Source: Eledone cirrhosa | Lineage: Eukaryota | Direction of reading: 5' to 3' | DNA: 64,000 nt | Assembly: GCA_964016885.1 (NCBI GenBank) | Contig: OZ024754.1 | Span: 29,698,001 to 29,762,000 of the forward strand | In this document: piece after piece, positions 1,746 through 64,000 of the stretch | Layout of the letters: each line of letters begins with the position of its first letter | How positions within the stretch are numbered: the first letter of the stretch is position 1 | Position numbers and translations under genes: made by a program | The notes under the pieces: generated by a model | Seen by the model: the letters and a program-made list of their open reading frames with translations, nothing else | The model's database searches: none | What the model was told of the DNA's origin: nothing

Positions 1746-2050
1746 ATATATATATATATATATATATATATATATATATATATATATATATATATATATA
1801 TATATATATATATATATATATATATATATATATATATATAAATATATATATATATATATAAATATATATATATATATATAAATATATATATTTATATATA
1901 TTGTTATACTTTGGGAGGGTCGTGTTGCCAATAAGAAACACACGCACCAGTGCTTTCACTTCAATTTATTATAATAAATTTATAAATTTAGGAATTTATA
2001 AATTTCCTGTTGATTGGTTGGTTCCACAACCAGATGGTTGTTTATATATT

Positions 2051-2093
2051 GTCAAAGTTCTTTCGTCACACATTCTGTGACCTCTTCAGTGAC
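2051..2093 (-). ncRNA. Minimal type I hammerhead ribozyme motif (PLE-1 inverted arm)
   Basis: Reverse complement: GTCA-CTGAAGA-G-GTCACA-GAATG-TGTGAC-GAAA-G-AA-C-T-T-TGAC (helix I GTCA/TGAC, 6-bp helix II, minimal helix III). Confidence 0.75.
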
Positions 2094-2297
2094 TGGGGAT
2101 TCTTTTCTTTGTTTTTTTCCTGCCTCTCCTTTGTTCTGTCCTACGCCATCTTGTTTGTGTGTGTGTGTTGTGTGCTTAGTTTGCGCAGGTGGTACATCCG
2201 GGTGTCTGTGTGTGTTTATATTCGTTTATTTATTTGTTTATTTACATGCTACCGGTTGGTTGTTTGTTCTATGTGCGTGTGTGTTTTCATTTTGTCC

Positions 2298-2727
2298 TTA
2301 ATTGTAAGTTATGATGTTGCTGTTCCACTCATGTTTTCTATTTAATTTTGGTTGTAATTCTTTTATGTTTATTGCTTCTGTGATTTGTCTAAACATTGCG
2401 TCTTTTCTGTGTGTAGATTCTATTTTTATTTCTATGTTCTCTAATTTACCCTTATGTTCTATTTTAGCATGTTGGTAGAGTACAGATGATTCTTTACTAT
2501 CTTGAAGGTCTCGCCAGTGTTCATTTATCCGTTCCCCTATACTACCAGCTGTCTCACCTATGTACACTATATTTTTATCTCTACATTGTCCTTCAGTACA
2601 TCTTATGCTATATACTACATTTCTAGTTTTACAGTTAATATGGGGGCTTAATTTACAGATTATACATTTCTTGTTTATACAGAGAGGTCTTTGAAAAGGG
2701 TATGTCTTGCTAATAAGTGTTTTTATG
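2298..2727 (-). CDS. Uninterrupted GIY-YIG endonuclease domain in the inverted PLE-1 arm
   Basis: CIICK...CKTRNVVYSIRCTEGQC...VYIGETAGSIGERINEH...RQITEAINIKELQPKLNRKHEW. The frame stays open to the native stop. Expression is not shown. Confidence 0.7.
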
Positions 2728-4568
2728 AGCAGTGACCCTGTCACAGGACCACCAACACGGCCAGTCTGTGGAGCTAACATTGCGAGTAACTACAGACTGT
2801 CCTATTTCCTCTCCCTGATCATACGCCCCATCATTGAAATGTCCTCAGATGTATGTGACAGCACGGAGGACCTCCTCAGCAGAATCGGCGAGAGTAACTG
2901 CTCTAGGGACCTAACAAACTGCATAATAGGTAGTATGGATGTTGTGTCCTTGTATCCATCTATTGACGTGGATTTTGCTGTGGAGAAATGCGTAGAAATG
3001 ATCAGTGAGAGCAATGTTGAATTCCGTGGGATTGATACCAGTGAGCTGGGACTCCTACTTAAACTTACCTATAGTAATAATTATCTAGACACATATGACC
3101 TTAGCAACCTGTGCCCTACAAGACCAGCAAGAGGCAGACCACCTACCATTACCTCAATGGCCAACAAAGCCCACACAGATAGATGGAATGGGTGGACCAG
3201 AGCCATACGGACCCCCGAAAACCACGATGAACTAAAGAAAATGATTGCACATGCGGTGAGGGCCTACATAAAATTAACCCTTAAGGAACATATGTTCAAA
3301 TTTAATGGAAAAACATATGCCCAAGAGGAGGGAGCAGCCATTGGTGTTAGCATTGCAGGCGACATAGCTAACCTATTCAGGGTATGGTGGGACAGTAGAC
3401 TTAAACTTAAACTTAAAGAACAATTAGAAGACCCCTTAACCCTGATAATTTACTCCCGCTACGTTGATGATATAAATATCGTAGTTAAAACACCCCCACT
3501 AGAGAACAGTCAGGAATTAGAGAAAAACACAATGGAAAGCATCCAGCAAATAGCTAACTCCATCCACCAGAGTATTAGAGTTATTATAGACTACCCAAGT
3601 AAACACCCCAACCATCGATTATCTGTACTAGACACAGAGCTCTGGTTAGATACCATTAATAACAAAAAACAAATCCTCCATTCCCATTATGCCAAACCCA
3701 TGACTTCCAAACATCTGATCCACCGAAACTCAGCTGTTTCGGACCATACCAAAATCAACATACTGATTGCGGATTTGGTACGGGTGATGAGAAACGTGTC
3801 CCGCATGAGAGACACATACAACACTTCATCCACCGTATGCAGTTCTCTGGTTACAATCAGAGAGATAAAATCAGAGTGTATAGAGGAGCCAGAACCAAAT
3901 GGGAAAAAATGGTAAATAATGACACAAATGGGACCTGCCCCTTGTATAGGAGCAAATTTTGGAATAGAATAGAAAGAACTAGGAATAAGGCTAATAGAAT
4001 AAACTCATGGTATGATAGCAATAAATACCAGAGTGTAATGTTCATCGATACAACCCCTAGAGGTGAATTAGCTTACAAATTTAGAAGCGCCCTAGATACA
4101 CATAAACTCAATATTAAGATAGTAGAAAGACCAGGTACCTCCATAAAAACACTTATTAGCAAGACATACCCTTTTCAAAGACCTCCCTGTATAGATAAGA
4201 AATGTATAATCTGTAAATTAAGCCCCCATATTAACTGTAAAACTAGAAATGTAGTATATAGCATAAGATGTACTGAAGGACAATGTAGAGATAAAAATAT
4301 AGTGTACATAGGTGAGACAGCTCGTAGTGTAGGGGAACGGATAAATGAACACTGACGAGACCTTCAAGATAGTAAAGAATAATCTGTACTCTACCAACAT
4401 GCTAAAATAGAACATAAGGGTAAATTAGAGAACATAGAAATAAAAATAGAATCTACACACAGAAAAGACCAATGTTTAGACAAATCAGAGGCAATAAACA
4501 TAAATGATTTACAACCAAAATTAAATAGAAAACATGAGTGGAACAGTAACATCACAACTTACAATTAA
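2728..4568 (+). pseudogene. PLE reverse transcriptase plus C-terminal GIY-YIG endonuclease (frameshifted, premature stops)
   Basis: RT motifs GSMDVVSLYPSID, YAQEEGAAIG, YSRYVDDI and HYAKPM. Frameshift at ~3800-3830. GIY-YIG NVVYSIRC...YIGETARS...R..EH. TGA at 4353 and further lesions downstream. Confidence 0.92.
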
Positions 4569-4773
4569 GGACAAAATGAAAACACACACGCACATAGAAC
4601 AAACAACCAACCAGTAACATGTAAATAAACAAATAAATTAACGAATATAAACACACACAGACACCCGGATGTACCACATGCGCAAACTAAGCACGCAACA
4701 CACACACAAAAACAAGATGGCGTAGGTCAGAACAAAGGAGAGGCAGAAACAAAAACAAAGAAAAGAATCCCCA

Positions 4774-4816
4774 GTCACTGAAGAGGTCACAGAATGTGTG
4801 ACGAAAGAACTTTGAC
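4774..4816 (+). ncRNA. Minimal type I hammerhead ribozyme motif (PLE-1 3' pLTR)
   Basis: GTCA CTGAAGA G GTCACA GAATG TGTGAC GAAA G AA C T T TGAC, with predicted cleavage triplet CUU. Hammerheads in PLE pLTRs are established. Confidence 0.78.
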
Positions 4817-61982: not shown

Positions 61983-62873
61983 AATTTCTTTATTAGCCAC
62001 AAGGGCACAAAAGAAGGGGACAAATAGAAATGGGGAGTTTACATACAGGTATATGAAAATAAAACTATTAATAAAATAACAAATAACAATTGAAATCCCC
62101 ACTAGGGGAGAGGCGTTACACAGGGGTTGTACACACCCCGAACAAATGTACAACCCTCATCTCCAGGAGCACCAAGAGTGAGTACTCCCTTCCTCTCTTC
62201 CTCTTTTTCCTCAACCTACAGGCTTATATAGAGAGAAGGCCCAACTACTCGGGCCATCTTTGTCACATTCACCCACCTTTTATAAAATTTGCTGGGGTAC
62301 AGCACATCTCTCTCCATCCTGATTCTTCTTCCAAAATGATATTTGAAAAAACGAATCAGTTGCTCGCCGGAGAGAAAGGTGTCTGACCTCAGCCCTTTTA
62401 ACCTCGTCCACCGTATAACCTCTTTCACCATAGCCATAACACATAGAACACATAAAACCGCCTCTCCCTCGATTTTGACGGAGGGTGGCGGTTTGATCAT
62501 GACAATGGACTCGGTGGTCAACTGGATTGGTCCCACCCGCGACAATAGTCGTTCTACATAGCCCCACAGGTCGGTAACGCCCGGGCAGTGTACAAATGCG
62601 TGCGCGACGGTTTCCTCGTCGTGCACGCATCTCGGACAGATCTTTTTCGAAGGGTCCCTACCCGGGCGCCCGTGTCTGTAGAGCTTGTCTCGAACTGGTC
62701 CTACCGAACAGACTGGCCAGTTCGTCCTCCTCTGCGCCTAGAGTTTCTCCGAGCGTGTCGTCGCACTTGCTGCGAACCAACCCTCTATAGAATGTCGAAG
62801 TGGAGTCTCCACTGATCGCCGGGTCCGTTTGCCAGAGGACTGTGAGCGCCTGAGCACATTCGATGTGCCAGTC
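61983..62873 (-). mobile_element. Second Tx1 family, 5'-truncated 3' fragment, inserted in (TATC)n
   Basis: WHIECAQALT...STSTFYRGLV...DDTLGETLG; EETVAHAFVHCP...MVKEVIRWTRLKGL, homologous to segments C/D. (GATA)n lies on both sides. Confidence 0.9.
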
Positions 62874-63582
62874 AGATAGATATATAGATAGAAAGATAGA
62901 TAGATAGGTATACACTAGTGGATCGGTTTATGTACCAGGATTACTGGATATATGAAGAATCATATAAACTGGGAAATTATTTTGATGTATTAATGGTTAT
63001 ATTTTCTAGTTTATGTTGATTATGATACGTGGAAGTCATTAAAGATACACGTGATATATAAATAATTTATTTGTAAAATATATTTACATAAATGTTCGGC
63101 ATATATATACCACCTTCGAATCATTGCGTCCTGGCTCGTGTTTAACATGGTTTTTGCCTGCATTATTTGCAATCAAACCAATGGATCATTCACACACACA
63201 CACACACATACACACATATATATATATATATATACACATTTTAGTACAGCATTAACGAAGCTTTAGGCTGCGGCTAAGCGAACGAATGCAGATTCGGAAT
63301 GTAGCTTTGGCACGATATATATATATATGTATTATGTACATATGTATATGCATATATATTAAATACATATGTATATATATATATATATATATATTTATGG
63401 CCATACTCGATAACGAGGGGGCAGTCATCATATATATATAAGTAGAAGGGATATTTAATTTGTTGGAAATCCGACAAATATAAATATAAATGTTTATAAC
63501 TGATTTAGAGCACTCAACAAGTTCTTGGGGTAAATATTCAATGATATTAAATAAATGGAAACTATATTTATAAAACCATATT

Positions 63583-63645
63583 TATTTTATTATATATATT
63601 TCAAGGGTACCAAAACACTTTGGTACGCTTCCTTCAGATAAAATA
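63583..63645 (-). ncRNA. Hammerhead motif (core CTGAAGG, A9 substituted)
   Basis: Inverted copy of 63814-63876 with one core change. Confidence 0.55.
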
Positions 63646-63813
63646 CAAAGTTTGTTTTATAAATAGACATATACCCAAGAAAATCATACATTATTAGTTG
63701 GATATTCTCTGGATAGTCCAGGGAATATCCAACTGATAAGAATGACTATCCAGAGAATATAACTGATAAGGTATGATTTTCCTGGGCATGTCTCTATTTA
63801 TAAAACAACTTTG

Positions 63814-63876
63814 TATTTTATCTGAAGAAAGCGTACCAAAGTGTTTTGGTACCCTTGAAATATATATAATAAAATA
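63814..63876 (+). ncRNA. Type I hammerhead ribozyme motif with a palindromic helix III
   Basis: TATTTTAT-CTGAAGA-AAGcGTACCAAA-GTGT-TTTGGTACcCTT-GAA-ATATATAT-A-ATAAAATA: 8-bp helix I, long helix II, AUA triplet. Confidence 0.8.
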
Positions 63877-64000
63877 AATATGGTTTTATAAATATAGTTT
63901 GCATTTATTTAATATCATTGTATATATATATATATATATATATATATATATATATATATATATATATATATATATGAAGAAGAAGTTTATGAAACGGAAA

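Follow-up and report, generated by a model that had tools for sequence, protein, structure and literature searches.

Six inverted insertions with one long and one short arm in (TA)n tracts of Eledone cirrhosa DNA: a known one-sided tail of Penelope-like elements and a possible two-primer origin

The 64,000-nt stretch of Eledone cirrhosa DNA considered here (contig OZ024754.1; hereafter the window, to which all coordinates refer) is animal DNA rich in repeats, with many (TA)n tracts and retroelements. Embedded in (TA)n are six insertions of four families, designated PLE-1 to PLE-4 after Penelope-like elements (PLEs), each consisting of two arms placed head-to-head with both 3' ends outward (Table 1); statements about all inverted insertions refer to these six pairs. 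Alignment of the arm ends and inspection of the junctions show that the outward 3' ends occupy one of two family-specific positions, and that a long end is paired with a short end in 6/6 insertions. The sequence by which the long arm exceeds the short one, the tail, measures 57 nt in both PLE-1 copies, 87 nt in both PLE-2 pairs, 61 nt in PLE-3, and 99 nt in PLE-4. The short end of PLE-2 insertion D lies 4-5 nt earlier in the element than that of insertion C, at ATA, so that two neighbouring AT words are used. This layout had been described in the initial annotation, and all of the ends given there agree with ours within junction ambiguity. The observation is real and was correctly seen, and it is largely known from other PLEs.

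Table 1. Arms, solo copies and motifs of the four families (RT stands for reverse transcriptase, EN for endonuclease, UTR for untranslated region, pLTR for pseudo-long terminal repeat and ORF for open reading frame).
Feature	Positions	Strand	Outward 3' end
Diverged PLE-4-like solo	1115..1270	+	about at long position, 1270
PLE-1 insertion A, inverted arm with short end: coding end of the GIY-YIG EN, 3' UTR, hammerhead core at 2089	1898..2727	-	short, 1898
PLE-1 insertion A, arm with long end: RT truncated at its 5' end, linker, EN (frames broken), 3' pLTR and tail	2728..5027	+	long, 5027
Minimal type-I hammerhead motif with an additional nucleotide ahead of helix II; cut predicted after 4812	4774..4816	+	
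PLE-1 open frame of 28 codons from ATG, similar to N-termini in related PLE ORFs; tail 4971-5027	4945..5027	+	
PLE-1 insertion B, arm with long end and a hammerhead core at 42523	42261..42981	-	long, 42261
PLE-1 insertion B, at the inversion point, 27 nt repeating the 5' end of the long arm	42982..43008	-	
PLE-1 insertion B, short-ended arm; hammerhead core 43468	43009..43669	+	short, 43665-43669
PLE-2 insertion D, long-ended arm	43680..43803	-	long, 43680
PLE-2 insertion D, arm with short end; fold resembling a hammerhead (core CAGAAGA), cut predicted after 43852	43804..43875	+	short, 43875
PLE-2 solo	52702..52776	-	short, 52702
PLE-2 insertion C, short-ended arm	55809..55865	-	short, 55809-55813
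PLE-2 insertion C, long-ended arm; decayed GIY-YIG-like remnant ~55900-56160 (by eye); 87-nt tail	55866..57374	+	long, 57374
'PLE-3' (insertion E), long-ended arm; 61-nt tail	57489..57657	-	long, 57489
'PLE-3' (insertion E), short-ended arm; central loop 2 nt	57660..57795	+	short, 57795
PLE-4 (insertion F), long-ended arm; 99-nt tail	63441..63718	-	long, 63441
PLE-4 (insertion F), short-ended arm; 25-nt repeat at centre; type-I hammerhead core 63822, predicted cut after 63868	63719..63920	+	short, 63920

PLE-1 encodes an RT with the expected motifs, including YVDD, and 72 related proteins were found, the best of which is an Octopus vulgaris RT-domain protein with 72% identity. Its Pfam matches fall below the cut-offs, both for RVT_1 (E=0.0017) and for GIY-YIG (E=0.00023; 21.9 bits, cut-off 22.6). 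The EN carries C-x4-C between the VYS and YIG motifs together with downstream histidines (CCHH pattern), and the linker upstream of it reads C-x4-C-x2-C, fitting the CX2-5CxxC linker that defines the Neptune and Nematis clades (PMC8557442) and that Penelope and Poseidon lack. The copies are also inverted and 5'-truncated with a tail on one end, and a match to the canonical EN+ PLE is well supported. Relatives of PLE-1 were recovered at 10 loci from metagenome contigs, 0 of which contain an inverted pair, and none was found in viral or prokaryote collections. One of them (L001, 2590-2672), from another source, ends directly in (TA)n, and three others (L004, L005 and L007) have terminal direct repeats; in L004 (3236-3441) the hammerhead, ATG and ORF follow one another in the same order as in PLE-1. 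A target-site duplication of PLE-1 itself is unreadable because the flanks are (TA)n.

With a descriptor of our own, minimal type-I hammerheads were identified in each of the four PLE-1 arms, the PLE-4 short arm, L004, and one unrelated place (48865), against a background of 1 core in 20 shuffles of 57 kb. An Rfam scan returned no hammerhead: none of its 88 weak matches exceeded the curated threshold, and nearly all were microsatellite look-alikes. The features of the PLE-1 motif agree with the minimal PLE hammerheads as described in passages of PMC4209133. The predicted cut lies 158 nt upstream of the short end and 215 nt upstream of the long end in PLE-1, and 52 nt before the short end in PLE-4, so self-cleavage would make neither end.

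Membership of the other families is less even, and the initial assignment of all six insertions to PLEs holds well for PLE-1 and in part for PLE-2 and PLE-4. PLE-2 retains a GIY-YIG-like remnant recognised by eye (0 Pfam matches), its RT being truncated away, and a hammerhead-like fold, likewise found by eye, in which helices I and III are fully paired and the core is altered; the descriptor did not pick it up. In PLE-4 the hammerhead has an 8-bp helix I, its core is changed in the long arm, and the arms are too short to carry RT or EN coding sequence. No ORF, PLE coding remnant or hammerhead was found in PLE-3, which is PLE-like by shape only and is treated as behaving alike without being counted as a member. 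The PLE-2 arms also differ internally: the short arms (55830-55840, 43855-43865 and 52720-52730) all read TTAAACTTT, and the long arms (57260-57270 and 43790-43800) read TTAAATTTT and TTAAAATTT. This difference could be due to chance, or the long and short arms could derive from different pLTR copies.

The pairs are not fold-back read artefacts, as the arms of one insertion differ (797/823 identical in PLE-1 insertion A, 647/656 or 98.6% in insertion B). The two arms of a PLE-1 copy have their subfamily variants in common, whereas identity between copies A and B is 93% (648/699), which indicates real DNA, one template per insertion, and two separate events. Nor is the asymmetry general to inverted retro-insertions in the window, since an inverted long interspersed nuclear element (LINE) pair at 32121-36096 has equal 3' ends (186/192). 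A sensitive inverted self-BLAST of the window returned no (TA)n-flanked inverted element beyond the six. If ends were independent with p=0.5, pairing of long with short in 6/6 would have P=0.016, or 0.06 when counted by family, and the true share of such pairs has a one-sided lower 95% bound of 0.61 (n=6).

The PLE-1 ends were also sought in four public runs, which were compared with window positions 4350-5039. Among 18,478 matching contigs of run X1, 106 exit PLE-1 at 4970 into a (TA)n consensus, the same base as the short end. Six loose ends are listed for this run (15-143 contigs each), and among these 4970 is the largest on the 3' side; the only other one listed on that side, 4469 (18 contigs), continues with element sequence past an indel. 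If the listed ends are the best supported ones, any single rival 3' end would have at most about 15 contigs. No loose end near 5027 appears among the matches listed, and in one contig of another organism (X6) the match continues past the short end, across the tail, as far as 5028. In raw reduced-representation reads of another study, depth falls between 4950 and 4972 (from 6837 to 4245 and from 3805 to 3371, by pair direction); these reads start and stop at fixed short motifs (4677, 4866, 4901 and 5016) and therefore give no long:short ratio. Because contigs and short reads cannot pair two ends, the test of pairing rests on the six insertions of the window.

The tail of PLE-1 probably belongs to coding sequence. 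In both long arms an ATG frame is open from 4945 through the tail, which would supply codons 10-28. Compared with a profile of five relatives' N-termini, chosen by eye (four of the eight proteins of a first profile, and L004), this frame gave the top score, matched by 0/2000 shuffles, and it aligns to the first residues. The long end therefore probably lies inside the coding start of the ORF and is probably not a natural RNA end. Searches for the bases beyond it gave 14 phmmer matches with a 30-residue N-terminal peptide, those inspected being unrelated repeat proteins, and two candidates in a word search with 40 residues, neither of them scoring.

At the short ends, the number of letters shared with (TA)n is 4 in PLE-1, 4 in PLE-2 (3 in one copy), 4 in PLE-3, and 0 in PLE-4. 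A 4-nt ATAT or TATA word thus stands at the short end in 3/4 families. Under a chance model that draws ends and phases at random within the last 150-290 nt, at least four shared letters in at least 3/4 families has P=0.0008, with a threshold picked post hoc, and the overlap summed over families has P=0.026. The word is thus enriched beyond chance, and the earlier description of short ends at such words stands for three families; in PLE-4 an ATAT lies one base past the end. Longer TA runs nearby are left unused, namely runs of 7 and 8 nt inside the PLE-2 tail and one of 9 nt located 201 nt before the PLE-1 long end, which argues that position is fixed first and that homology is at most fine-tuning. 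The proposal that the short arm is primed at a fixed internal TA-complementary site thus keeps its fixed end and its enriched word, but complementarity alone does not choose the site. Predicted folding offers no conserved signal at the ends, with z between -0.82 and 0.86 in 5/5 folds.

How PLEs come to produce tandem and inverted insertions continues to be described as an open question (PMC8557442; PMC11167929). The closest biochemical system is PAc, a Poseidon element of Anolis carolinensis, for which both strands are cut and extended, two internal start sites bound the tail, a dimer is predicted, and hammerhead cleavage is not needed (PMC11167929). As is likely for PLE-1, its two fixed ends lie within the 5' part of the ORF, downstream of the hammerhead, and its target is AT-rich. 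We favour, at a probability of roughly 0.55, a reading in which these are head-to-head Penelope-like insertions in (TA)n with the known tail on one arm, for which an element protein nicks both strands and one complementary DNA (cDNA) is made on each from two fixed RNA sites 57-99 nt apart. The earlier idea of one primer per target strand at two sites fits both our data and the PAc biochemistry in this respect. Both outer junctions are 3' ends, and hence both target strands would have to be joined to copies of one RNA region. By analogy with PAc, the GIY-YIG nuclease would cut both (TA)n strands, and protein binding on the RNA near the ORF start would set the two start sites. One primer would take the distal site, giving the long arm, and the other the proximal site, giving the short arm, since two primers could not occupy a single site of one RNA. 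The trailing cDNA may then displace the leading one, so that the same 3' region is copied twice, and a 3-4-nt ATA, ATAT or TATA match to the nicked target may fix the exact proximal base. The cDNAs would stop at the same or at different 5' points and be joined by microhomology, producing the inversion point.

The centres of the palindromes bear on this scheme. The long arm is the one that extends further 5' in insertions A and C. In B the arm starts lie within 1 nt of each other with the 27-nt repeat between them and a self-complementary CG, and in E the arms meet over the 2-nt loop, both of which point to one template 5' end. The unpaired part of the centres of D and F is in short-arm orientation, and in D the short arm extends beyond the 5' limit of its partner by ~30 nt. 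Such centres are not producible by fold-back of the long arm. Priming of both target strands on one RNA with a resulting inversion is also the basis of LINE-1 (L1) twin priming. In L1, however, the second site varies and no duplication of the 3' region results, whereas the insertions described here have a fixed second site and the same 3' region in both arms.

Several points weigh against the two-primer reading. Strict pairing is founded on only six pairs from four families. Depth of tail words in X1, a crude measure rather than a copy number, is ~0.8 of that just upstream (1.31-1.40 against 1.66-1.74 million), where long plus short pairs only would give 0.5; long solos, tandem copies or long plus long pairs could explain the excess. 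The PLE-4 short end and its flank share 0 letters, ATAT lying one base further on. In vitro, PAc shows neither a start-site difference between top and bottom strands nor homology to the cut DNA (PMC11167929), so these data demonstrate neither paired use of the sites nor a TA-match step. Palindrome centres can be remodelled later, which weakens the argument from D and F. Finally, the N-terminal similarity of the PLE-1 frame is weak in absolute terms (7.9 bits), an earlier and noisier profile that included mis-started proteins was equalled by 44/1000 shuffles, and the tails of PLE-2, PLE-3 and PLE-4 showed no frame beginning with ATG.

The strongest competitor, which we consider rather unlikely, is that a cDNA primed at the long end folds at its 5' stop and copies itself, whereupon a nuclease stops or cuts the copy at a fixed site short of the tail and microhomology joins it to (TA)n. 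Pairing of long with short would follow automatically, the centres of B and E are hairpin-like, and the ATAT and TATA words would suit end-joining; moreover, self-priming has been proposed from junction palindromes in passages of PMC3846280, and nuclease resolution has been proposed for the tail (PMC8557442). Fold-back of the long arm nevertheless accounts for only 4/6 centres, D and F being those left over, whereas two primers account for 6/6; a short-ended solo exists (52702), and PAc begins cDNA directly at the proximal site.

It is improbable that the long arm is primed at the true RNA 3' end, as the initial annotation held, or at read-through UA repeats past the tail, with the short arm primed by base-pairing at an internal TA-like word. 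The enrichment of TA words agrees with that scheme, as does the expectation that in RNA transcribed from an inserted copy the tail would be followed immediately by (UA)n, through which the long end could be inherited by homology. Priming at the RNA end is disfavoured, however, by a long end within the likely N-terminus of the ORF, by predicted hammerhead cuts upstream of both ends, and by PAc sites that are both internal, and the unused longer TA words speak against base-pairing as the sole guide.

Far less credible is the notion that both arms were long at insertion and that slippage between an internal ATAT and the (TA)n flank, or a deletion between the two, later cost one arm its tail. Microsatellite flanks are unstable, and short ends on TA-like words would suit such a loss. 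Against it, exactly one arm is always affected, the same base recurs in 106 contigs, the longer TA runs in the PLE-2 tail are unused, copy B is already long plus short with its arms still 98.6% alike, and passages of PMC3846280 report one-sided tails for Penelope elements with ordinary target-site duplications. That two sharp ends are used independently, with 6/6 by luck, is barely tenable, for although the P values above, the X1 tail depth and the wording of PMC8557442 (a tail 'at either end' and 'often' at only one) leave it some room, long ends at the frequency of 0.7-0.8 suggested by that depth make 6/6 rarer still (P 0.005-0.001).

Other elements of the window may be noted. PLE-1 insertion B and PLE-2 insertion D share one (TA)n tract (41999-43904) and lie 15 bp apart, and PLE-2 insertion C and PLE-3 share another (55712-57808) at a distance of 115 bp; adjacent families in one tract represent repeated reuse of a single target tract. 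Unclassified inserts occur between TA/TG tracts at 764-1004, 1342-1743 and 43905-44259; the first two have CCCGCCGAAAT in common, and hammerhead-core-like words that the descriptor missed can be made out by eye. The (AAT)n/(ATT)n tracts of 26269-36096 contain inverted LINE pieces nested in one another, with one pair (26269-28004 and 30273-32081) 84% alike and a second (32121-33436 and 34768-36096) 95% alike with equal 3' ends outward, the latter being labelled 'Tx1-like' from the appearance of its ORFs only. Two-ended LINE insertions arranged head-to-head within a trinucleotide repeat are uncommon in their own right. RT retroelement copies form a tandem array at 7093-25237 with (TTA)n between them and ORFs of 1083-1141 residues without stops; two of these (12936-16187 and 16879-20133) look identical in protein, implying a very recent duplication or an assembly duplicate. 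At 58272-59367, a 226-bp inverted repeat (95%) with ~41-bp subterminal tandem repeats surrounds a GC-rich core and is followed by a 40-bp direct repeat at 59366 and 60049 (region 59366-60086), and the whole (58272-60086) looks like a DNA-transposon type. This inverted repeat was considered as a seventh case and dropped, as its right side lacks (TA)n, it lacks a hammerhead, and it has subterminal repeats. A 15-bp minisatellite based on ATCACAGTT extends over ~1.1 kb (38737-39889) with several frames open.

The one-long-one-short layout is that of the known one-sided PLE tail, which the canonical EN+ unit shares with the insertions described here (PMC8557442, Fig. 2 legend; passages of PMC3846280). 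The earlier recognition that an optional 3' tail and inverted arrangements are known is confirmed, but it gave too little weight to this published layout. Passages of PMC3846280 describe a 31-bp tail that is optionally present on one inverted pLTR and lengthens the first 12 codons of the ORF to 22. Published tails measure 30-40 bp and are one-sided 'often' or 'optionally', whereas those here measure 57-99 nt and are one-sided in 6/6. The PAc start site is non-homologous to the cut DNA, unlike the 3/4 short ends found here on ATAT or TATA, and the main text of that study does not address pairing of the two sites in inverted copies (PMC11167929). The literature searched contained no count of long plus short pairs and no TA homology at the short end, although Arkhipova 2006 and Evgen'ev and Arkhipova 2005 may hold more; PMC13282606, in which O. 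vulgaris Penelope families are counted, lacks the word 'tail', and passages of PMC8969392 and bioRxiv 10.64898/2026.07.22.740005 contain nothing on pairing. The modest additions are thus tails of greater length and a short end that possibly matches TA. They indicate that families may differ in the length of the tail and in homology at priming, which matters for PLE boundaries in repeat libraries.

More tentatively, and with some doubt, we suggest that the pairing is obligatory, with a Penelope dimer on one RNA priming both strands at two fixed sites and microsatellite-targeting families having evolved a TA-complementary proximal word through which that primer pairs with the nicked (TA)n end. 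Strict pairing over many young pairs, together with which arm reaches further 5', would separate two-primer integration from fold-back, and PLE-1 is abundant in the genome. If obligatory pairing is true, the 'optional' tail would be the direct footprint of a programmed two-primer integration and would explain the inversions of PLEs.

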